From a virus (Duplodnaviria > Heunggongvirae > Uroviricota > Caudoviricetes): DNA of 8,684 nt. Of this stretch, positions 1-8,684 are shown piece by piece. A model generated the notes under the pieces. That model worked only from the letters and a program-made list of their open reading frames with translations. It did no database searches and was not told the DNA's origin. The stretch's first letter is position 1. Every line of letters begins with the position of its first letter. Both the position numbers and the translations under genes were made by a program. The stretch is taken from positions 1-8,684 of the IMG/VR virus record IMGVR_UViG_2909246061_000003, one strand, 5' to 3'.

Positions 1-192
1 TCAGGAGCATTTCTGATTAACACCACCGTTAAGAATCCACCCCTCAACAGCTTCACGAAGGTATGATTTGGGGTGGGTTCTGACTGGCTTCGGAAATCCG
101 TGCCGTTTGGTATAGTTCCAGATTGTCTGACGTGATGAAACACCGAGCTTGTTCATCACTTCTTTCTCAGGAATCAGGCTGGTATCGGTCAT
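1..192 (-). CDS. AlpA/Xis-family small winged-helix DNA-binding protein (putative prophage excisionase)
   Basis: Complete 63-aa ORF, ATG at 192-190 and stop at 3-1. The pattern KEV-x3-LGVS-x2-TIW-x5-GFPKPV followed by W-I is typical of HTH_17/AlpA-excisionase proteins. It lies at the distal end of the leftward early operon, where lambdoid xis genes sit. An int gene would lie left of the window. Confidence 0.7.
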   Translation of the reverse strand: MTDTSLIPEKEVMNKLGVSSRQTIWNYTKRHGFPKPVRTHPKSYLREAVEGWILNGGVNQKCS

Positions 193-204
193 CTTAATTC
201 TCCA

Positions 205-233
205 GGCAAAAAGAAACCGCCATCAGGCGGCTT
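205..233 (-). terminator. Rho-independent terminator downstream of the 55-aa ORF
   Basis: On the minus strand: AAGCCGCC-TGAT-GGCGGTTT hairpin (214-233, GC core of 5 bp) followed by CTTTTT (205-213). The stop codon of the 55-aa ORF lies in the loop. Confidence 0.6.
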
Positions 234-390
234 GGTGTTCTTTCAGTTCTTCAATTCGAATATTGGTTACGTCTGCATGCGCTATCTGCGCCCATATCAT
301 CCAGTGGTTATAGCAGTCGTTGATGCCCTCTGCTTCGATAACTCTGTTGAATGGTTCTCCATTCCATTCACCTGTGACTCGGAAGTGCAT
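223..390 (-). CDS. Small prophage protein, 55 aa, unknown function
   Basis: Not in the supplied ORF track because it is under 60 aa. ATG at 390-388, TGA at 225-223. Translation: MHFRVTGEWNGEPFNRVIEAEGINDCYNHWMIWAQIAHADVTNIRIEELKEHQAA. GGAG lies 7 nt upstream of the ATG, and a terminator follows immediately. Confidence 0.55.
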   Translation of the reverse strand: MHFRVTGEWNGEPFNRVIEAEGINDCYNHWMIWAQIAHADVTNIRIEELKEHQAA

Positions 391-402
391 TTATCATCTC
401 CA

Positions 403-459
403 TAAAACAAAACTCGCCGTAGCGAGTTCAGATAAAAGAAAACCCGCACTCGGCGGGTT
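403..459 (-). terminator. Tandem rho-independent terminators (minus strand)
   Basis: Hairpin B: AACCCGC / GCGGGTT (441-447 / 453-459), followed on the minus strand by TTCTTTTAT. Hairpin A: AACTCGC / GCGAGTT (411-417 / 422-428), followed by TTGTTTTA. Neither has a T-run on the plus strand, so both are minus-specific. Confidence 0.6.
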
Positions 460-479
460 CGCATTCGTTCAAATTGCGT

Positions 480-761
480 TTACTTCTTGGCGTTCTGTTC
501 ATCCATATCGATATACCATGGGTTGCTTCCCTTGGGCATGTTTAACGACTGCTCGCGATAGTATCTGATGCGCTCCATGAAATACTCGCGTGAGTGCTCA
601 GGTTGCTCTCATGATACCTGCTCAGTGATAACAGGTATGTTAAGGCGCTCTCTGTACTCCATGCCTGATGCTGCAAGGTCAACGTTTACCTTGTTCTGTT
701 TTTCTTTCGATTTCTCGGCGATGTTATGCCTGACATTGTCAACCCGCCTCCTTCTGAACAT
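480..761 (-). pseudogene. Small early-left ORF interrupted by one in-frame TGA (50 codons + stop + 42 codons)
   Basis: ATG at 761 to TGA at 611-609 gives MFRRRRVDNVRHNIAEKSKEKQNKVNVDLAASGMEYRERLNIPVITEQVS. The same frame continues to TAA at 482-480 as EQPEHSREYFMERIRYYREQSLNMPKGSNPWYIDMDEQNAKK. The distal part has only an internal ATG (578) with no Shine-Dalgarno. The 5' end overlaps the upstream 80-aa ORF by 23 nt. Confidence 0.4.
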
Positions 762-981
762 AACGGTTATAAATCAGTCCCTGAGGGCCATAAGGAAGCG
801 GGATGTGCAACTCCTCTGGTTCAGAAACTATCCATTCTCCGGCCATCTCCGCTGGAGAGGTAATGATAAGTTGTTTGCTAATAAAAGGACCACTCCTCTC
901 AACAACAAGCTTACCATCTTCATTAATAAAAGCTTGGATGTCAGGTGTGCTTCCACACTTGGTGATGCAGCGTTTGAACAT
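739..981 (-). CDS. Hypothetical prophage protein, 80 aa
   Basis: Track ORF 739..1023, trimmed to ATG 981 (MFKRCITKCGSTPDIQ...). That ATG is preceded by a GGGGGGA purine tract 7 nt upstream. The longer version would begin inside the putative promoter. I recognise no family. Confidence 0.5.
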   Translation of the reverse strand: MFKRCITKCGSTPDIQAFINEDGKLVVERSGPFISKQLIITSPAEMAGEWIVSEPEELHIPLPYGPQGLIYNRYVQKEAG

Positions 982-1011
982 TTTGTGTCCCCCCATTTTA
1001 TGTACGGGGTA

Positions 1012-1041
1012 ATTATAACACATTGAAATATAGTAATATTT
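1012..1041 (-). promoter_or_regulatory. Candidate extended -10 promoter with an upstream AT palindrome, driving the 80-aa ORF
   Basis: The minus strand reads TGTTATAAT (TGn + TATAAT; plus coordinates 1012-1020) about 30 nt upstream of ATG 981. The palindrome AAATAT-AGTA-ATATTT (1026-1041) occupies the -35/spacer region. I found no good -35 hexamer. Confidence 0.35.
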
Positions 1042-1107
1042 GACGTAGATTTCTTTTGATCTATAAGCGATTTTTTAATGCTTTTAAGTTATAAATACTT
1101 GTTTTCA

Positions 1108-1524
1108 TCACCCATCTTGCTGCGGTGCTACTATTGAAAAGTGCTCACACCCTTTAGCCCAAATAGTTTTGATAGTTGTCCAACTGACTGGAACCTTGAT
1201 TTCGATTCTCCCGCTACAGTCACAAGTTTCGCAATCATCATCACCAAAGCATTCCGGGCAGCTTATAAACGTAGTTTCTGAAAATTCACCGGATAGCACA
1301 CCCTTAGCGCCGTTCTCGGCTGTTAGTCTCTTCGGCACCATGACCCAACCATCCGGAATTACCGGAGAGTTGCCGGGTTCTTTAATGTGCAAGCGAGGCT
1401 CACCATCTTTTGGCTCAGGCCACTGGCGCTCCATGTTGATCTTCAATTTATCTTCCATAGCAGCGGTAATTTCAGCATCGCTGATGCCAGCACGGCGCTG
1501 TGCATCCCACAACAGGAAATGCAT
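1108..1524 (-). pseudogene. Ead/Ea22-like early protein, 5'-truncated fragment
   Basis: The 138-aa ORF begins mid-domain. From memory, ..CMHFLLWDAQRRAGISDAEITAAMEDKLKINMERQWPEP resembles the C-terminal half of the MazG-like DUF550 module of lambdoid Ea22-type proteins. A Cys-rich module follows (CPEC..CETCDC). The frame stays open upstream to 1554 with no further start. Lambda-like nutR sequence begins at about 1565, so the 5' part was deleted. Confidence 0.55.
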
Positions 1525-1566
1525 ACAGTACGGAACTAAACGCGGAAAAGCCGCTTAAGACATTCC

Positions 1567-1598
1567 CGCTCTTACACATCCCAGCCCTGAAAAAGGGC
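1567..1598 (+). promoter_or_regulatory. nutR site (boxA CGCTCTTA + boxB GCCCTGAAAAAGGGC)
   Basis: boxA is at 1567-1574. The boxB hairpin GCCCT-GAAAA-AGGGC is at 1584-1598. Both match lambda nutR as I recall it, and so does the flanking sequence up to the cII start. Confidence 0.8.
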
Positions 1599-1677
1599 AT
1601 CAAATTAAACCACACCTATGGTGTATGCATTTATTTGCATACATTCAATCAATTGTTATCTAAGGAAATACTTACAT
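1599..1677 (+). terminator. tR1-like Rho-dependent terminator region
   Basis: The segment ATCAAATTAAACCACACCTATGGTGTATGCATTTATTTGCATACATTCAATCAATTGTTATCTAAGG matches my recollection of the lambda nutR-cII interval, which carries tR1. A Rho-dependent terminator cannot be proven from sequence alone. Confidence 0.45.
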
Positions 1678-1700
1678 ATGCAACTTACAAGTACTCGCAA
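1668..1700 (-). promoter_or_regulatory. PRE-like CII-dependent promoter
   Basis: The minus strand reads TTGC-GAGTAC-TTGT (plus 1687-1700), then 13 nt, then AAGTAT (plus 1668-1673). The architecture and spacing match lambda PRE (TTGC-N6-TTGC, 13 nt, AAGTAT). The second repeat is TTGT rather than TTGC. Confidence 0.5.
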
Positions 1701-1956
1701 GAAAGCGAATGCAATTACAAGCAACATCCTGAATCGAATTGCTGTACGTGGTCAGCGAAAGGTTGCCGACGCGTTAGGGGTTAATGAATCGCAAATTTCG
1801 CGATGGAAAGACAGCTTCATCCCCAAAATGGGAATGCTTCTGGCTGTTCTTGAATGGGGTGTTGAAGACGAGGAGTTGGCGGAACTGGCTAAGCAAGTAG
1901 CCAGAATGCTGACAAAAGAAAAAGCCCCGAAGAACGGCGAATTCTTCGAGGCCTGA
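1678..1956 (+). CDS. cII: Lambda CII-family transcriptional activator
   Basis: 92 aa from ATG 1678, with AAGGA upstream in the same context as lambda cII. VADALGVNESQISRWKDSFIPKMGMLLAVLEWGV aligns with lambda CII AEAVGVDKSQISRWKRDWIPKFSMLLAVLEWGV. The track start at 1618 is an upstream extension into tR1 and is rejected. Confidence 0.9.
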   Translation: MQLTSTRKKANAITSNILNRIAVRGQRKVADALGVNESQISRWKDSFIPKMGMLLAVLEWGVEDEELAELAKQVARMLTKEKAPKNGEFFEA

Positions 1957-1990
1957 TGTAGAAAGACTGGATCAATCCACAGGAGTAATT

Positions 1991-2152
1991 ATGACAAAAC
2001 GTCGTAAGAAATACCAGGAAAAAGAAGAGATTCGACACCCTGATTCACCTGAGGGATTAGTGGTAGCCGCAGCAAATAACAGGGCGTTCGCAGAACGCCT
2101 TGTTGGTGTTTACAGACTAGCCAAAGCAGGAGTGAAACATGGGCGTCGTTAA
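1991..2152 (+). CDS. Hypothetical basic 53-aa protein between cII and O
   Basis: Not in the track. CAGGAGTAATT-ATG at 1991, TAA at 2150-2152. Translation: MTKRRKKYQEKEEIRHPDSPEGLVVAAANNRAFAERLVGVYRLAKAGVKHGRR. It overlaps the O-like start by 14 nt. Its SD and first codons resemble the lambda O initiation region. Confidence 0.45.
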   Translation: MTKRRKKYQEKEEIRHPDSPEGLVVAAANNRAFAERLVGVYRLAKAGVKHGRR

Positions 2153-2936
2153 GTTAGCTGATTACAGGCCTCAACTGGAGGTCGTGGAGCATCGCGTGGC
2201 AGATACCGAAGATGGTTTCATGCGCATTGCTAACGAGATTACCGACAGTCTGCTGATGGCTGATTTAACCGTCCGGCAGTTGAAGGTGATGCTCGCTATC
2301 ATGCGCAAGACATACGGATTCAATAAGCCGATGGATCGACTCACAAACACGCAGATAGCAGCCATGACAGGTATTCATCACACTCATGTTTGCGCTGCCA
2401 AGCGCCAGCTTATCGAGCGTAAATTCCTCATTGCTGATGGCGTGAAAATCGGAGTGAACAAGGTGGTTTCTCAGTGGATTAGCCAGGACAGCTTAACATT
2501 AGCTAAAACAGCTAATAAAACATTAGCCAAGTCGGCTAATGGGTATAAGCCAAGTCAGCTAAACACAAAAGACAATATACAAAAGACAATAAATACAAAT
2601 ACCCCCTTACCCCCTAACGGGGGCGGCGATGGGCAGGTTAAACCTGAACGTCGCAAGGCAGAACGAATCGACTACGAATCCTTCCTGAACGCCTACAACA
2701 CCGAAGTCGGTGACAGACTGCCACACGCTGTTGCGGTCAACGAGAAACGCAAACGCCGCCTGAAGAAAATCATCCCGCAACTGAAAACGCCAAACGTGGA
2801 CGGTTTCAGAGCGTATGTCAGGGCGTTTGTGCATCAGGCCAAGCCGTTTTACTTCGGAGACAACGACACGGGCTGGACGGCCGATTTTGATTACCTGCTG
2901 AGGGAAGACTCGTTAACGGGAGTTCGGGAAGCGTAG
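2139..2936 (+). CDS. Lambda O-family replication initiator, with non-lambda C-terminal domain
   Basis: 265 aa, with AGGAG upstream of ATG 2139. The N-terminal domain aligns along its length with lambda O (RQLKVMLAIMRKTYGFNKPMDRLTNTQI vs RQFKVLLAILRKTYGWNKPMDRITDSQL). Iterons are embedded in the gene. The C-terminal part (..FYFGDNDTGWTADFDYLLRED..) is unlike lambda O. The last codons and the stop lie in sequence that looks like the lambda Q 5' region, so the 3' end is probably junction-derived. Confidence 0.85.
   Translation: MGVVKLADYRPQLEVVEHRVADTEDGFMRIANEITDSLLMADLTVRQLKVMLAIMRKTYGFNKPMDRLTNTQIAAMTGIHHTHVCAAKRQLIERKFLIADGVKIGVNKVVSQWISQDSLTLAKTANKTLAKSANGYKPSQLNTKDNIQKTINTNTPLPPNGGGDGQVKPERRKAERIDYESFLNAYNTEVGDRLPHAVAVNEKRKRRLKKIIPQLKTPNVDGFRAYVRAFVHQAKPFYFGDNDTGWTADFDYLLREDSLTGVREA
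2479..2600 (+). repeat. ori-lambda-type origin: four palindromic iterons plus an AT-rich tract
   Basis: The iterons are TTAGCCAGGACAGCTTAA (2479-2496), TTAGCTAAAACAGCTAA (2499-2515), TTAGCCAAGTCGGCTAA (2523-2539) and TAAGCCAAGTCAGCTAA (2546-2562). They are spaced 20-24 bp apart. An A-rich tract (2563-2600) follows and contains a 13-bp direct repeat, ACAAAAGACAATA, at 2565-2577 and 2579-2591. The layout inside the O gene is the same as in lambda. Confidence 0.7.
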
Positions 2937-2962
2937 CTAAATTTCATTCGCCAAAAAGCCCG

Positions 2963-3541
2963 ATGATGAGCGACTCACCACGGGCTACGGCTTCTGACTC
3001 TCTTTCCGGTACTGATGTGATGGCTGCTATGGGGATGGCGCAATCACAAGCCGGATTCGGTATGGCTGCATTCTGTGGTAAGCACGAACTCAGCCAGAAC
3101 GACAAACAAAAGGCTATCAACTATCTGATGCAATTTGCACACAAGGTATCGGGGAAATACCGTGGTGTGGCAAAGATCGAAGGAAATACTAAGGCAAAGG
3201 TACTGCAAGTGCTCGCAACATTCGCTTATGCGGATTATTGCCGTAGTGCCGCGACGCCGGGGGCAAGATGCAGAGATTGCCACGGTACAGGCCGTGTGGT
3301 TGATATAGCAAAAACAGAGCAGTGGGGGAGAGTTGTTGAGAAAGAGTGCGGAAGATGCAAAGGTGTCGGCTATTCAAGGATGCCAGCAAGCGCCGCATAT
3401 CGCGCTGTAACGATGCTAATTCCAAACCTCACCCAACCCACCTGGTCACGCACTGTTAAGCCGCTGTATGACGCTCTGGTGGTGCAATGCCACAAAGAAG
3501 AGTCAATCGCAGACAACATTTTGAACGCGGTCACACGTTAG
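2963..3541 (+). CDS. Q: Late-gene antiterminator Q (lambda Q type), missing the first ~15 codons
   Basis: The 192-aa product is near-identical to my recollection of lambda Q residues 16-207 (MMSDSPRATASDSLSGTDVMAAMGMAQSQAGFGMAAFCGKHELSQNDKQ...CRDCHGTGR...CGRCKGVGY...NILNAVTR). The Q frame upstream reads ..SVAKFHSPKSP, as in lambda, but has no start codon back to the stop at 2888-2890. ATG 2963 has no SD. Confidence 0.85.
   Translation: MMSDSPRATASDSLSGTDVMAAMGMAQSQAGFGMAAFCGKHELSQNDKQKAINYLMQFAHKVSGKYRGVAKIEGNTKAKVLQVLATFAYADYCRSAATPGARCRDCHGTGRVVDIAKTEQWGRVVEKECGRCKGVGYSRMPASAAYRAVTMLIPNLTQPTWSRTVKPLYDALVVQCHKEESIADNILNAVTR
3186..3218 (-). promoter_or_regulatory. PaQ-like CII-dependent antisense promoter inside Q
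   Basis: The minus strand reads TTGC-GAGCAC-TTGC (plus 3205-3218), then 13 nt, then TAGTAT (plus 3186-3191). This is the CII tetrad-repeat architecture, located where lambda PaQ is known to sit. Confidence 0.55.
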
Positions 3542-3583
3542 CAGCATGATTGCCACGGATGGCAACATATTAACGGCATAATA

Positions 3584-3625
3584 TTGACTTTTTGAATAAA
3601 GTTGGGTAAATTTGACATCAACGAT
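3584..3625 (+). promoter_or_regulatory. Late promoter PR' with Q-binding/qut region and sigma-dependent pause element
   Basis: TTGACT (3584-3589), a 17-nt spacer TTTTGAATAAAGTTGGG, TAAATT (3607-3612), then the -10-like AACGAT at 3620-3625. This nearly matches lambda PR'/qut as I recall it. Confidence 0.8.
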
Positions 3626-3647
3626 GGATAAATGCACTCGTTAAATA

Positions 3648-3677
3648 AAGCCCTGAGTTAATAGCTCTGGGCTTTTT
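3648..3677 (+). terminator. Rho-independent terminator ~30-60 nt downstream of the PR' start (tR'-like, short leader RNA)
   Basis: AAAGCCCTGAG / CTCTGGGCTTT stem (one T:T mismatch) with loop TTAATAG, followed by the T5 run at 3673-3677. It would give a transcript of about 58 nt from about 3620. Confidence 0.65.
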
Positions 3678-3957
3678 GCGTTTTAAGCACGGCCTTTCTG
3701 AAAGCACATCAAACCAAATACCAGACAGACAATACCCTCACCTTATAGGGACACTTGCTTCAACAGGAGGGACGGTTAGGACCGCCATCCTATATGGGAC
3801 GACCGCCAATAGAACCACGGCCACGGTAATAGAACTCTTCAGAGATGGCACAGTCGCTGCCGGGCATACTTTTACGCTGAGAGATATTTCTTTTGGAGAC
3901 AGCAGGGCTCTAGGGGCTGATTTTGGAGGCTCCTTCGGGAATCTGTATAAGTTCTAA
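3649..3957 (+). pseudogene. Start-less open frame, possible 3' remnant of a late (tail fibre/spike?) gene
   Basis: The frame is open from 3649 to TAA 3955-3957. It contains no ATG at all, and the only start is a TTG inside the terminator. The peptide is Gly/Thr-rich (..GTLASTGGTVRTAILYGTTANRTTATVIELFRDGTVAAGHTFTLRD..). It converges on gtrC, as tail genes do in gtr-carrying phages. The functional assignment is a guess. Confidence 0.3.
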
Positions 3958-3958
3958 T

Positions 3959-3976
3959 CGGCCGCATCAGCGGCCG
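3959..3976. terminator. GC-rich hairpin between convergent units
   Basis: CGGCCGC-ATCA-GCGGCCG, a 7-bp stem. It lies 1 nt after the plus-frame stop and 7 nt beyond the gtrC stop. There is a weak T-rich run on the plus side (TATCTCTTT) and none on the minus side. Confidence 0.45.
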
Positions 3977-3983
3977 TATCTCT

Positions 3984-5585
3984 TTACAGATAAGCGACGA
4001 AATAGCCGTCAATTTTCTTTATTTTAAGTTTGTCGCCATAGATGGATAGGGGCTTCTTGAGCCATGTATCGTCTGTGGCGACATATATCTCATTATTCCT
4101 TAGCGTACCCTTAGCCTTAATTTCGGCTATATATCTTTTGTTATTATCTATCGCTGCTTTGTCTGCTCTAGCAAAATACCCAAAATTAAGTTTCATTTTT
4201 TCTGAAGAAGCAAATTCAGCAAATGGGAGCCAATGTCTTAAGCTGAACTCATCGTAATCAGTGGTTATGATAGTGTCCTTCCCTTTGGAGATGACTTCCC
4301 ACTCTTTACTCAACATTTGAGAGCTGTATGGCTTACCAGTATATATCTCTCGAACGGCTTTGAAAAAGTTGCTTTCATCCGCCACTGATATTAATAGAAT
4401 AGGGAGCAAGACATAAGCAGAACTTTTCGAGGTTTTTGCTAAGTATGCCAAAACAATCAACATCAAGATCATCGTCACCGGCCAGAAGAACCGACCAGAA
4501 GAGCGAAAAACGCCACCAACCTTCATGAGAAAGTCATTCATTGGAATTTCAATGAGATTAAATCCATAAAAGTTAATTCGATAAGTTATAGAAACGGCAG
4601 CCAGAACTAAACAGAAGTACAATACAGGAGATTTTATAATTCTCCTGAAATCTATGGACTTTCTTAAAGAGGAGTCTATCAGCATAAACAAAAATAGCGT
4701 GATGATGCCTAATCCTAGATAATTTATACCCTCAAAGTTAGCCTGTTGACTCCCATGACTCAAGATAAGATGTGAGTATCTCTGGTCTCCTGGGTTGAAC
4801 CAGCCGGCAAGATCCATGTTAAGGAATCCGAATCCAGGGTATGGGTCAGAGCCTTTAATAACAAAGTATCCGGTAGCATACATTGCGAGAAATATTAACA
4901 CAGAGTAACACGCGAAAAAGAATGCCGATCTTTTTAAAGATAAACGGTTTGTGTTCAGTTTGTTTAAAATGTCAAATGCAAAAATTAAATACACCATTAT
5001 CAGCAAATATGCATGAATGGTGACTGAGAGAACTAAAATAGCAGCCCATCTTTTAAAGCAAAAAGACCTATTGATATAAAGGTAAAATCCAAAAAGAATT
5101 AGCCACTGAGCGCCTAATGCAAAGTGACCACCGGCACGATTTAAGAATATTGGTGCAATGCAGAAGAAGCATGAACCTATTGCAGAGAATATCTCATCCT
5201 TTGTTAACTTACGAAGAACCAAATACGCAGAAAACGTCATAAGCACAAAGCAAAGATACATCCAAAGCCCGTGATATTGAAATCTGGCGGGGAGAAAGTC
5301 GCTAAAAGGCTTGAATATGAAGGCCATAATTGGGATTGAGTCGGTGTAAACGATAGACCCACCTACACCCATCCCATAGTTATAATTTAGGCCAAGGGGC
5401 CACTGCAACAACGGAGTATTTCGGAAGAAATTCCATCCTGACCAGCTTTGACCAGGATCACCTATCATAAGCCATCCAACTCTTTTGAAGTCCAGCACAT
5501 TCACACCAACATACATAGCAAACATTGATGTCGTGAATATAAACATAAATAAGGACGCTAAAATCCTTTTTTGTGCCTTAGTCAT
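3984..5585 (-). CDS. GtrC-type serotype-specific O-antigen glycosyltransferase (polytopic membrane protein)
   Basis: 533 aa, the third gene of a gtrA-gtrB-X operon, overlapping gtrB by 8 nt. It has many hydrophobic segments, loop motifs such as [14 protein letters not shown] and [10 protein letters not shown], and a hydrophilic C-terminal domain of about 130 aa. The DNA is strongly AT-rich. Acceptor and linkage specificity cannot be read from the sequence. Confidence 0.8.
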
Positions 5586-6501
5586 TGTGTTTATTCCTTA
5601 AGATGTAACGAGGCCTAGCCTTGACTTCAATATATATTCTTCCGATATATTCACCAAGAACGCCAATGCCGATAAGTTGAATCCCGCCCAAGAACAGGAT
5701 TGAAACAAGGAGTGAAGGATATCCTCTCACGGCATTTCCAAATGCAATAGTATCGATGATCATCCAGGCTCCGTAGATAAATGCAAGCCCAGCGACTAGT
5801 AATCCAATATAAGTCCACATACGTAGAGGGAATGTAGAAAAGCTAGTAATCCCTTCTAGAGCTAAATTCCAAAGCTTCCAGCCATTAAACTTTGTGCAAC
5901 CAGCGACTCGCTCAGCTCTGGCGTATTCTACTACATCTGTTTTCCCGCCAACCCAAGACAAAACGCCCTTCATGAACAAGTTTCTTTCTGGCATTAGTTT
6001 GATATTTTCTACCACTTCTCGTGACATTAAACGGAAGTCACCGACGTTCTCTTCAATTTTGGGATTGCTGATTTTATTGTGTAGCTTATAGAACCACTCA
6101 GCTGATTTTCGCTTTAAACGACCGTCAGTAGACCTGTCTGTACGTTTGGCCAGAACCATATCCGCCCCAGCCTGCCACTTCTCAATTAGGTGGGGGATTA
6201 CTTCAATTGGGTCCTGCAGATCTACATCAATCGGAATGACCGCGTCGCCTGTAGCTTGGTCAAGGCCAGCAAACAAAGCCGGTTCCTTTCCGAAGTTACG
6301 CGTGAAGGAGAGAGGAACTACGAGTGGGTCAGCAATGGCAAGCGCGTTAATAATTGATTCTGTAGCGTCTTTGCTACCGTCGTTAATGAAGACTATTTCG
6401 ACTTCATGCTGCTGAAGCCCTTCAAATTCCCGCACGGTTTTATAGAAGATTGGAATTGCTTCCTCTTCATTAAACACAGGAACGACCAGAGAAATTTTCA
6501 T
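5578..6501 (-). CDS. gtrB: Bactoprenol (undecaprenyl-phosphate) glucosyltransferase GtrB, GT2 family
   Basis: 307 aa. [17 protein letters not shown]...INDGSKD...PIDVDLQDP, plus two C-terminal TM segments, is the classic GtrB/GT2 signature. There is an ATGA overlap with gtrA (6498-6501). Confidence 0.95.
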
Positions 6502-6860
6502 TTCACATCCCTAAAGACAATGAACTTTGAATAAATAAACCCGCACACCAGACTGATGGCGGAGAACAGAATTAAGGTGATGATTGGTGCCAGACCAGAT
6601 TTATCCGCCGCCCAACCCACAGCTGCGCTAAGCGTCCCCATAAAGCCGACGTAAAGCATGTATCGCATGGTTGTTGTGGATGACTTAAACGTGAATCTGG
6701 CATTTGCGAAGAAGCTAAATGACACAGCCACAACGAACCCGGCAAAGTTGCCAAGGGCCTGTCCTGTATGGAATGCATAGATGCAAATTGCGAACACTAC
6801 CCAGTGAATGAGCGTGTTAATGACACCTATCGATGTGTACTTGGCGAATAACTTTAACAT
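6498..6860 (-). CDS. gtrA: GtrA flippase for bactoprenol-linked glucose
   Basis: 120 aa from ATG 6860. [23 protein letters not shown]...[12 protein letters not shown]...YSKFIVFRD matches phage GtrA proteins, which are about 120 aa. The track's GTG 6923 start adds 21 non-homologous residues and is rejected. Confidence 0.9.
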
Positions 6861-6936
6861 TATAGAAATCAGTGAATTCGGAAAGGTCTGAAGTGTAGCA
6901 CCACAAACGCTATTGATCGACACCGCCGATCAGTAC

Positions 6937-6950
6937 TACTGTATTAATAT
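6937..6950. promoter_or_regulatory. Left half of a LexA (SOS) box split by the IS
   Basis: TACTGT + ATTAATAT abuts the IS left end. Together with 8275-8280 it reconstructs TACTGTATTAATATACAGTA (CTGT-N8-ACAG). Confidence 0.7.
6943..6950. repeat. Target-site duplication, left copy (ATTAATAT)
   Basis: An identical 8-mer occurs at 8267-8274, directly flanking the IS inverted repeats. An 8-bp duplication is the ISL3-family hallmark. Confidence 0.85.
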
Positions 6951-8266
6951 GGGTCTTCCCTTGTTGTGGTGGCTGAAGGCATGATAATGGTGTATTTAAT
7001 CGCCAGAGGTCACCGCCATGGACGAAAAGTCCCTCTACGCTCATATTCTCAACCTGTCCGATCCGTGGCAGGTAAAGTCCCTTTCTCTCGATGAAAATGC
7101 CGGTTCTGTTACTGTCACTATTGAGATCGCTGAAAACACCCGGCTAGCCTGTCCGGCCTGCGGTAAATCCTGTTCTGTTCACGATCACCGTCATCGTAAA
7201 TGGCGCCATCTTGATACCTGCCAGTTCACCACTATTGTTGAAGCCGATGTTCCACGAATTATGTGTCCGGAGCATGGCTGTCAGACGTTGCCTGTTCCGT
7301 GGGCTGGCCCCGGAAGCCGGTATACGTTGCTGTTCGAATTGTTCGTTCTCTCATGGCTGAAAATCAGCACCGTTGATGCTGTCAGGAAGCAACTTAAGCT
7401 CAGCTGGAATGCGGTTGACGGCATTATGACCCGGGCAGTTAAGCGAGGTCTTGCCCGGATAAAAAAGCCATTATCCGCCCGTCATATGAATGTGGATGAG
7501 GTCGCCTTTAAAAAAGGACATCGTTACATAACGGTGATCTCCGATCGCGATGGTCGGGCGCTGGCCTTAACGGATGATCGCGGCACAGAGAGTCTTGCCG
7601 GCTATCTTCGCACACTCACTGATGGGCAGTTGCTGGCTATCAAAACGCTCTCAATGGACATGAACGCGGGCTATATAAGAGCAGCGCGCATCCACTTACC
7701 CAGCGCGGTTGAGAAAATCGCCTTTGACCGCTTCCATGTGGCGAAGCAACTGGGCGAGGTAGTTGATAAAACCCGTCAGAATGAACATCCGCACCTCCCT
7801 GTTGAAAGCCGACGCCAGGCAAAAGGAACCCGCTTCCTGTGGCAGTACAGTGATAAGTGGATGACTGAATCCCGGCAGGAAAAGCTGATGTGGCTGCGTG
7901 CACAGATGAAGCTGACGAGCCAGTGCTGGGCGCTGAAAGAGCTGGCAAAGGATATCTGGAACAGGCCATGGAGCGAGGAAAGGCGGAGTGACTGGCAGAG
8001 ATGGCTGGCGCTGGCGGCTAACAGTGACGTTCCCATGATGAAAAATGCTGCGAAAACGATAGGAAAAAGGCTGTACGGGATCCTGAATGCGATGCGACAC
8101 AGTGTCTCAAACGGAAATGCGGAGGCACTTAACAGCAAGATAAGGTTGCTGAGAATAAAAGCCAGGGGATACCGAAACCGGGAGCGCTTTAAACTGGGAG
8201 TGATGTTCCACTACGGTAAGCTGAATATGGAGTTCTGAGCCTTCCCACCATGATCGGGGAAGACCC
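6951..8266 (+). mobile_element. ISL3-family insertion sequence, 1316 bp, apparently intact
   Basis: Imperfect terminal inverted repeats of about 28-30 bp. IRL is GGGTCTTCCCTTGTTGTGGTGGCTGAAGGC (6951-6980). The reverse complement of IRR is GGGTCTTCCCCGATCATGGTGGGAAGGC (8266-8239). There is a single transposase ORF and an 8-bp direct-repeat flank. Confidence 0.9.
7018..8238 (+). CDS. ISL3-family DDE transposase
   Basis: 406 aa. It has an N-terminal zinc-finger region (CPACGK...CPEHGC), a DDE core (..MDMNAGY.., ..FDRFHV.., ..SNGNAEALNSKIRLLRIKARGYRN) and the length typical of ISL3 transposases. AGAGG lies upstream of the ATG. Confidence 0.95.
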   Translation: MDEKSLYAHILNLSDPWQVKSLSLDENAGSVTVTIEIAENTRLACPACGKSCSVHDHRHRKWRHLDTCQFTTIVEADVPRIMCPEHGCQTLPVPWAGPGSRYTLLFELFVLSWLKISTVDAVRKQLKLSWNAVDGIMTRAVKRGLARIKKPLSARHMNVDEVAFKKGHRYITVISDRDGRALALTDDRGTESLAGYLRTLTDGQLLAIKTLSMDMNAGYIRAARIHLPSAVEKIAFDRFHVAKQLGEVVDKTRQNEHPHLPVESRRQAKGTRFLWQYSDKWMTESRQEKLMWLRAQMKLTSQCWALKELAKDIWNRPWSEERRSDWQRWLALAANSDVPMMKNAAKTIGKRLYGILNAMRHSVSNGNAEALNSKIRLLRIKARGYRNRERFKLGVMFHYGKLNMEF

Positions 8267-8274
8267 ATTAATAT
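8267..8274. repeat. Target-site duplication, right copy (ATTAATAT)
   Basis: See the left copy at 6943-6950. Confidence 0.85.
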
Positions 8275-8280
8275 ACAGTA
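8267..8280. promoter_or_regulatory. Right half of the split LexA (SOS) box
   Basis: ATTAATAT + ACAGTA, ending 17 nt upstream of the umuD-like ATG. Confidence 0.7.
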
Positions 8281-8297
8281 ACTATCGGAGGTGAGTT

Positions 8298-8684
8298 ATG
8301 GGATTCCCGAGTCCGGCTCAAGACTATGTTGAAGAGCGCGTATTGCTCGACAAGCGCATCATAAGCAGACCAGCGGCCACGTATTTCATGAGAGCGGGTG
8401 CAACGCATCACCGCGAAGGCATCCTGAATGGTGCTCTTCTGGTAGTGGATGCATCGCTATCACCATGTGACGGCTCGTTGCTGGTTTGCAGAATGGAAGG
8501 TGAGCTGAGGATTAAGCGATATCGCAAATCACCAAAGCCTCACCTGGAGGATTTGCAGACGGGAAGGCGTGAGGAGATACCGGCACACGATGACGGCACG
8601 AGTCCGGATGCGATATTTGGTGTGATCACCTACATCATAAACGATGCACGCTCTGGCGAGTTTGATGATTGTCTGATTATGTGA
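8298..8684 (+). CDS. umuD: UmuD'-like S24-family protein (Pol V accessory subunit homologue lacking the N-terminal arm)
   Basis: 128 aa, with SD GGAGG at 8287-8291 and an in-frame TGA at 8292-8294 that excludes a longer N-terminus. M-GFPSPAQDYVEERV.. aligns with E. coli UmuD from Gly25 (GFPSPAADYVEQRI..). The alignment continues through ATYF, LLVVD, ELRIKRY (Lys97 equivalent kept) and FGVI. The GDSM motif is replaced by ATHH. Confidence 0.85.
   Translation: MGFPSPAQDYVEERVLLDKRIISRPAATYFMRAGATHHREGILNGALLVVDASLSPCDGSLLVCRMEGELRIKRYRKSPKPHLEDLQTGRREEIPAHDDGTSPDAIFGVITYIINDARSGEFDDCLIM

Follow-up and report, generated by a model that had tools for sequence, protein, structure and literature searches.

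Is the last gene of this stretch of phage DNA a UmuD-like mutagenesis factor that is made in its activated form, and has it escaped control by the SOS response? The DNA analyzed here (8,684 nt; IMG/VR record IMGVR_UViG_2909246061_000003, positions 1 to 8,684; hereafter the window) ends with an open reading frame (ORF) for which an earlier note, drawn from the sequence alone, had proposed that both the proteolytic and the transcriptional safeguard of the SOS response are missing. We found that the ORF is a humD-type gene and that its LexA operator is interrupted by the insertion sequence (IS) ISKox3. Our overall explanation, to which we assign a probability of roughly 0.78, is that it is a pre-activated UmuD′-type HumD gene, the last gene of a defective prophage, whose operator was split by ISKox3. 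Two features define the gene itself, and the TGA stop of the ORF is the final codon of the window.

8298-8684, plus strand: humD-like gene, encoding a 128-amino-acid (aa) UmuD′-type HumD-family protein; T36 corresponds to UmuD Ser60, K73 corresponds to UmuD Lys97, and residues 115-128 form a C-terminal tail
8287-8291, plus strand: Shine-Dalgarno sequence GGAGG, 6 nt 5′ of the humD ATG

The ORF starts with ATG, and its N-terminus, M-GFPSPA, matches C24-GFPSPA of UmuD, so that the protein begins at the position of the UmuD′ cleavage product, as the earlier note had recognized. A protein search gave 607 relatives, and the residue counts reported here were taken from the best 120 cluster representatives; 116 of these 120 start at the same equivalent of UmuD Gly25 (M-GFPSP). 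The Shine-Dalgarno sequence had likewise been judged correctly as a good one. An in-frame TGA at 8292-8294, two codons 5′ of the ATG, is present also in IS-free alleles, which are 100% identical to the window from 8267 onward, indicating that no N-terminally longer form of humD exists and that the short form is, as had been argued, no artefact of the IS. The same stop codon rules out an additional N-terminal coding part upstream of the gene in IS-free alleles. The window protein thus has neither the N-terminal arm nor the Cys/Ala-Gly cleavage site of canonical UmuD.

By every criterion that could be tested on the sequence, the ORF is a member of the HumD family and does not belong to the canonical, autoproteolytic UmuD family. 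The NCBIfam equivalog model NF051876 (HumD family translesion DNA polymerase) matched protein residues 1-128 at profile positions 1-129 of 129, with a score of 207.2 bits against a cut-off of 120 (E=6.6e-62). On the canonical UmuD model (NF007621 / PRK10276) the protein scored 80.7 bits, under the cut-off of 110. Three genuine UmuD proteins gave the reverse pattern, with 142-156 bits on PRK10276 and 80-94 bits on the HumD model. The HumD match, combined with matches to E. coli UmuD′ chains (E=9e-17) and to Pfam Peptidase_S24 (E=1.2e-7), excludes a chance ORF. Identity determined by tblastn was 83% to N15 gp26, 70% to P1 HumD and 63-72% to the homologues of phiKO2, HK639 and HK140. Almost all of the best 120 among the 607 relatives have a length of 126-130 aa, and NCBI or UniRef gives many of them the name HumD family. 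The ratio of nonsynonymous to synonymous substitution rates (dN/dS) for the window gene versus those of N15, HK639 and HK140 was 0.06-0.19, indicating that the HumD family is under purifying selection.

An AlphaFold model, built from a 42-sequence alignment of database proteins, had a mean predicted local distance difference test score (pLDDT) of 70, with a core at 85-89 and low values for the first 25 and last 10 residues. The closest PDB matches of this model were the UmuD′ chains 1ay9, 8gmt and 1umu (E ~2e-5, TMt 0.66-0.72), and LexA C-domains came next. The full-length match above the family cut-off, the 70% identity to P1 HumD and the UmuD′ chains as top structural matches bear out the proposal that the protein is a UmuD′ analogue supplied ready-made, as P1 HumD is. 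The gene itself was already known, since the family has a curated model and the exact protein is named HumD in RefSeq: a gene 100% identical to it is present on three complete E. coli chromosomes, with the product WP_072778263.1, 'HumD family translesion DNA polymerase / S24 family peptidase'.

The Ser60-Lys97 catalytic dyad of canonical UmuD is only half present in the window protein. In every alignment the Lys97 equivalent was K73 (motif R-I-K-R-Y), confirming that this residue, noted earlier in the motif IKRY, is kept; Lys was found at this position in 116 of the 120 representatives. The Ser60 position depended on where a one-residue gap was opened. Pairwise HMMER alignment put the gap after HH, giving UmuD Ser60 = His37, whereas a profile of 46 family members aligned with UmuD′ chains put it before the motif ('mra.gathyreG' against 'vkAsGDSMIDGG'), and MAFFT alignment with P1 HumD agreed with the family profile (G-D-S-M = G34-A35-T36-H37). 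Under the latter placement the motif A-D-S-H of P1 HumD aligns D-S to D-S, and the spacing to the conserved G-x-x-x-G-x-LL is free of gaps. On these grounds His37 was dropped in favor of Thr36. Neither alignment places a Ser at this position, so that the reported loss of the nucleophile stands, but the equivalence of G-D-S-M with A-T-H-H was off by one residue, and Thr36 keeps a hydroxyl group.

Nor is the missing Ser special to this gene. The Ser60-equivalent position was occupied by Thr in 100, Ser in 17 and Ala in 3 of the 120 representatives; on these alignments, the Ser-to-Thr change is a family trait (~83% of members) and no peculiarity of the window gene, with P1 HumD in the Ser minority. 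Engineered UmuD′ reportedly needs no Ser60 for mutagenesis. Because the role of UmuD′ needs no catalysis, loss of catalysis is expected to be neutral for a UmuD′ mimic, which also fits the presence of Thr for Ser in most of the family.

HumD proteins also carry a C-terminal extension that is absent from UmuD. Its family pattern is NDARSGEFDDCPVM, and in the window protein it occupies residues 115-128 (window 8640-8681). Among 108 full-length relatives, the R, the E and the second D of this tail are invariant, while the F and the first D vary very little. The model predicts disorder for the tail (pLDDT 36), and in our comparison its EFDD-x-P-hydrophobic pattern loosely recalls the C-terminal tail of SSB, DFDDDIPF. 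Only fragments corresponding to the 3′ part of humD (residues ~45-124 or 73-124) lie at or near the ends of the genome records of mEp234, E212, Sf101 and Stx1/Stx2 phages, and in HK140 the annotated attP overlaps the humD 3′ end. These observations suggest that integration or excision at this site may rewrite or truncate the HumD C-terminus.

We next turn to the region upstream of the gene, where the IS and the remains of the operator are arranged as follows.

6951-8266, plus strand: ISKox3 (ISL3 family), 1316 bp, ends GGGTCTTCCC...GGGAAGACCC; 100% identical to E. coli and RefSeq copies annotated ISKox3 and in the same direction as humD
7018-8238, plus strand: ISKox3 transposase, 406 aa, with the Pfam domains Zn_ribbon_ISL3, HTH_Tnp_ISL3 and DDE_Tnp_ISL3; the coding sequence stops 60 nt short of the humD ATG
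6937-6950, no strand: left half of the split box, TA-CTGT (CTGT at 6939-6942) plus the left copy of the 8-bp duplication ATTAATAT (6943-6950)
8267-8278, no strand: right half of the split box, the right copy of ATTAATAT (8267-8274) plus the ACAG half-site (8275-8278)

In the IS-free allele, a LexA box, TACTGTATTAATATACAGTA, lies upstream of humD, with 19 bp between its end and the ATG; 18 of its 20 positions agree with the LexA consensus. A CTGT-N8-ACAG box is found upstream of the P1, N15, phiKO2, HK639, HK140 and BTP1 genes as well, and it is labeled a LexA site in the records of P1 and phiKO2. Window positions 1974-6950 and 8267-8684 match the IS-free E. coli contig L014 at 100%, in two blocks that overlap by 8 bp, and this 8-bp target duplication, ATTAATAT, is exactly the spacer of the LexA box. 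The inserted element has a DDE transposase with a Zn-ribbon and a helix-turn-helix (HTH) domain, terminal inverted repeats and an 8-bp target duplication, as expected for the ISL3 family. CTGT-N8-ACAG does not occur anywhere in the window, and neither IS junction rebuilds the box; the earlier statement that the LexA box is destroyed was therefore correct. That the window lacks the upstream LexA box typical of the HumD family is thus a trait of this allele rather than of its protein.

The window humD carries no mutation relative to the IS-free alleles, and this 100% identity indicates that the insertion is recent. Searches of complete E. coli genomes, of plasmids and of phages did not find the exact IS-bearing allele; their best matches started at query base 28, the IS boundary. 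In the IS-free allele the box lies within a 113-bp divergent region (L003 8919-9031) common to humD and a gtrA-gtrB-DUF6311 operon, ~77 bp from the gtrA start, which suggests that the SOS response could act on the gtr operon as well; after the insertion, the left half-site remains with the gtr genes.

ISKox3-type elements showed a site preference for LexA boxes. Four further 100%-identical copies of ISKox3 each lie in a CTGT-N8-ACAG sequence with N8 as the duplication; one is located before dinD, one beside a 'DNA polymerase V' (umuD-like) gene, and two are on plasmids. Scanning one genome per species with the left-end 20-mer gave 46 stretches, including 42 left junctions with flanking sequence, and CTGT occupied positions −12 to −9 in 25 of these 42. 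A scan of metagenomes with the right-end 20-mer added at least 120 stretches. When duplicates were removed, 66 distinct left and 86 distinct right flanks were left (loci L020-L189): CTGT was present at −12 to −9 in 48/66 and ACAG at +9 to +12 in 69/86, against a background of 0.49% per position (P<1e-95 for each side). A half-site at the exact offset was thus found in about 75-80% of the 152 distinct junctions. All complete copies with a perfect 8-bp duplication rebuilt CTGT-N8-ACAG (14/14; background 1.5e-5 per position), and the position counts over the junctions read A-CTGT-ATATATAT-ACAG-TA, which is the LexA consensus. The possibility that CTGT-N8 is part of the IS was rejected, because N8 differs among copies and the empty site is contiguous.

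Canonical SOS genes start just outside the junctions: cho, recA, sulA, ydjM, ssb (where the box is a CCAG variant) and several of the umuD/mucA type. On a metagenome contig (L142), ISKox3 has entered the gtrA-side box, orthologous to that of the window, in a prophage that is 79% identical to the window over the gtr region; the element is in the opposite orientation, indicating an independent insertion. A minority of copies lie in unrelated sites, for example L064 and L065 from Candidatus Symbiopectobacterium, in which the IS has expanded and flanks have often recombined. Insertions selected in capsule genes have been reported with AT-rich 8-bp repeats (PMC12057282). In the insect symbiont Candidatus Symbiopectobacterium endolongispinus (L025-L068), more than 20 ISKox3-like copies were seen, many of them with non-matching left and right flanks that still bear CTGT or ACAG half-sites, which suggests IS-mediated rearrangements after insertion into SOS boxes (recA, sulA, cho, ydjM).

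A description of LexA- or SOS-box targeting by ISKox3 or ISL3 elements was not found in the literature searched, one in ISfinder/TnPedia or in a subscription journal being possible; the IncX3 plasmid maps of 24 papers show ISKox3 beside umuD. We regard it as an even bet that ISKox3-type ISL3 elements are SOS-box-homing IS, entering the center of the gamma-proteobacterial LexA operator (tA-CTGT-N8-ACAG-Ta), duplicating the 8-bp spacer and so uncoupling an SOS gene from LexA with each hop, in the full sense that the behavior is both real and not yet described. The genes affected are recA, sulA, cho, ydjM, ssb/uvrA, dinD, umuD/mucA-type genes and humD, with the window allele as one such event. 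The transposase may read the sequence itself or may be guided by bound LexA.

Other IS with palindromic or structured targets are IS10, which has a symmetric hot-spot consensus, and IS1397/ISKpn1, which insert into palindromes of the repetitive extragenic palindromic (REP) and bacterial interspersed mosaic element (BIME) type. ISKox3 resembles them in entering the center of a symmetric sequence, A-CTGT-(AT-rich N8)-ACAG-T, and duplicating the central 8 bp. It differs in that the sequence it enters is an operator, that of the global repressor LexA; each insertion thereby rewires an SOS gene. For humD, the loss of the operator is best explained as a by-product of the preference of ISKox3 for LexA boxes and not by selection for derepression of the gene; its reading as a design feature is not sustained.

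The remaining genes of the window place humD in a prophage.

3984-6860, minus strand: O-antigen-modification operon, divergent from humD, with GtrA-like (6498-6860), glycosyltransferase family 2 (GT2) GtrB-like (5578-6501) and DUF6311 GtrC-like (3984-5585) genes
1618-3541, plus strand: lambdoid early-gene remnant, with CII, replication protein O and antiterminator Q

An HTH regulator adjoins the integrase end, where window positions 1-223 match L003 550-772. Over positions 1-3957 the prophage is a short remnant with the order HTH regulator, truncated dATP/dGTP pyrophosphohydrolase-like ORF, CII, O and Q, and the gtr operon comes straight after. The prophage lacks genes for lysis, head and tail (morphogenesis), indicating that the carrier is a defective lambdoid/P22-like prophage with humD as its last gene. 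The arrangement gtr-LexA box-humD is also found in BTP1-type P22-like Salmonella phages. In BTP1 (L002 4020-4410) humD is an unannotated pseudogene, its reading frame broken by a stop near codon 29 (AAT*FMR) and shifted further on, and in vB_ST415_1NRH (L001 4023-4382) it is split into two short coding sequences.

The window ends with the humD stop codon, and its last bases, ATGTGA, had been suggested as a possible GTGA stop/start overlap with a downstream umuC-like gene. The identical protein is indexed in 494 blocks of an assembly collection, and neighborhoods were taken from the 10 contexts listed and from RefSeq loci. In 10/10 contexts a divergent GtrA / GT2 / DUF6311 operon lies upstream of the identical gene, and host dacD follows 344 bp downstream, then sbmC and yeeA; dacD was seen in the RefSeq loci too. 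The GTG frame of ATGTGA comprises 12 codons and then a TAA, which, with dacD as the next gene, excludes the overlap with umuC. No Y-family polymerase gene was found beside humD in these 10 contexts and RefSeq loci. An adjacent umuC is also absent in P1 (phd-doc follows), N15 and phiKO2 (a terminator, then par genes), HK639 (integrase) and HK140 (attP). The window gene is an orphan, as P1 humD is, and its product would have to work with host UmuC.

How far P1 HumD can serve as the precedent, as had been suggested, is seen from a direct comparison. The two proteins belong to the same family and share, besides their 70% identity, a similar length (128 versus 129 aa), the M-GFPSP start and the conserved C-terminal tail; both are orphans on temperate phages without umuC, and in the native allele both have a LexA box just upstream. 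They differ in the nucleophile motif (ADSHH with Ser in P1, GATHH with Thr in the window protein) and in the end of the tail (CPVI versus CLIM). P1 is a plasmid prophage with an intact box, whereas the window gene resides in a chromosomal defective lambdoid prophage with the box split by ISKox3. The precedent therefore applies to family and overall sequence, but not to the nucleophile, for which P1 HumD keeps Ser.

In the latter respect N15 gp26, phiKO2 gp23, HK639 gp28 and HK140 gp028 (63-83% identical) are closer, having Thr at the nucleophile position; their genes likewise have a LexA box upstream and stand at the end of the tail-fibre/accessory region, beside an att or par locus. Unlike the window gene they have no IS in the operator, and HK639 gp28 has Met for the Lys97 equivalent. 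E. coli UmuD/UmuD′ (1UMU, 1AY9, 8GMT) share with the window protein the S24 fold, the Lys97 equivalent and the core GFPSPA...ATYF...GDLL/GALL...GE(F/L)x(V/I)K, which aligns throughout. Compared with UmuD, the window HumD falls under the UmuD model cut-off, is without the 24-residue N-terminal arm and the Cys-Gly cleavage site, has Thr for Ser60, a one-residue deletion before the motif and a 12-residue conserved C-terminal extension, and is not in an operon with umuC.

What the insertion does to expression turns on one further feature.

6913-6942, plus strand: candidate native humD promoter, TTGATC-18 nt-TACTGT, the best candidate in the 113-bp gtrA-humD spacer, read by eye; it overlaps the left half of the box and now lies left of the IS, pointing into it

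In the normal state, humD would be SOS-regulated through its consensus LexA box. The protein would be made directly in the 'cleaved' form, dimerise, bind host UmuC and replace UmuD′ in DNA polymerase V (Pol V), and it would thereby bypass the RecA*-mediated self-cleavage of UmuD. P1 HumD is reported from experiments to stand in for UmuD′ in this way, binding UmuC and RecA filaments and restoring umuC-dependent mutagenesis. With ISKox3 in the box spacer and the spacer duplicated, LexA binding would be lost, and the probable native promoter, now left of the IS and without an operator, would still point toward humD. The most likely outcome would be weak, LexA-independent transcription of humD by read-through from the native promoter, the transposase promoter or both.

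Several observations weigh against this explanation. The candidate promoter is weak and under the threshold of the promoter scan, and a hybrid promoter at the right IS junction was found neither by the scan nor by eye, so that the gene may be silent. The defective state of the carrier prophage and the pseudogene in BTP1 suggest that the gene is dispensable. The experimentally tested member of the family, P1 HumD, has Ser where the window protein has Thr. Finally, the window protein ends in ...CLIM, whereas 105/108 relatives have Pro third from the end (...CPVM), a change of possible consequence should the tail serve in interactions.

The first of these points leads to the alternative that survives best, doubtful as we consider it: that the locus is a silenced relic, in which a recent insertion of ISKox3 cut off the promoter, no HumD is made and the gene is decaying in a defective prophage. 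The position of the candidate −35 and −10 boxes left of the IS is in its favor, as is the finding that no promoter-like site was present in the last 100 bp of the IS or at the right junction. So are the missing lysis and morphogenesis genes, the stop and frameshift in the BTP1 orthologue, and the humD fragments at the ends of the Stx, Sf101 and mEp234 phage genomes. On the other hand, the transposase gene is oriented toward humD, with 60 nt between its stop and the humD ATG, and a terminator prediction over 6800-8684, the transposase-humD gap included, gave no terminator-like site. The native promoter, freed of its operator, points the same way, the Shine-Dalgarno sequence is intact, and humD is unmutated relative to the IS-free alleles. 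On the sequence features, we rate read-through expression as somewhat more likely than silencing. The claim that both SOS safeguards are absent cannot be upheld in either case, because the IS probably also parts the gene from its native promoter and may thus silence it, and because host umuC stays LexA-repressed and RecA* is still required for active Pol V Mut (UmuD′2C-RecA-ATP).

Less probable again is that HumD acts as a modulator, forming mixed dimers with UmuD/UmuD′ or competing for UmuC, RecA* or the beta clamp, and so, to the prophage's advantage, tuning or damping Pol V and the UmuD2C checkpoint. This would give a role to the family-specific and highly conserved features, namely a longer acidic loop, the deletion of one residue ahead of the nucleophile and the tail NDARSGEFDDCPVM with its predicted disorder, and it would agree with the finding that none of the family members examined brings a polymerase of its own. 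However, P1 HumD reportedly acts positively. Very improbable indeed is a protease in which the Thr/Ser36-Lys73 pair is catalytic and cleaves, for example, host UmuD, LexA or a phage repressor in trans: a hydroxyl residue is kept at 36 in 117/120 and Lys at 73 in 116/120 representatives despite the lack of an N-terminal substrate arm, but conservation at the two positions is not above the family average (mean column identity 79%), a few members have Ala at 36 or Met or Thr at 73, the pair may serve fold stability in view of the Ser-Lys hydrogen bond in UmuD′, and we know of no characterized S24 peptidase with a Thr nucleophile.

We retain the explanation of a pre-activated HumD gene with a split operator. 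HumD-type pre-cleaved UmuD′ analogues have been known since 1999, and to these the window gene adds nothing new. Two points about the family are worth recording: most members have Thr at the nucleophile position with the Lys kept, and the family has a very conserved tail, predicted to be disordered, that is absent from UmuD. What is possibly new is the SOS-box homing of ISKox3, of which the window allele is an example. ISKox3 is widespread, being found on conjugative resistance plasmids (IncX3 blaNDM and others) and on E. coli and Klebsiella chromosomes, and it appears to target LexA operators. If this is true, each transposition would alter how a gene for DNA repair, mutagenesis or cell division is wired into the SOS response, almost every plasmid or phage with an SOS-regulated gene would offer the IS a safe and conserved landing pad, and the spread of an IS, the SOS response and mutagenesis would be linked in clinically relevant bacteria.

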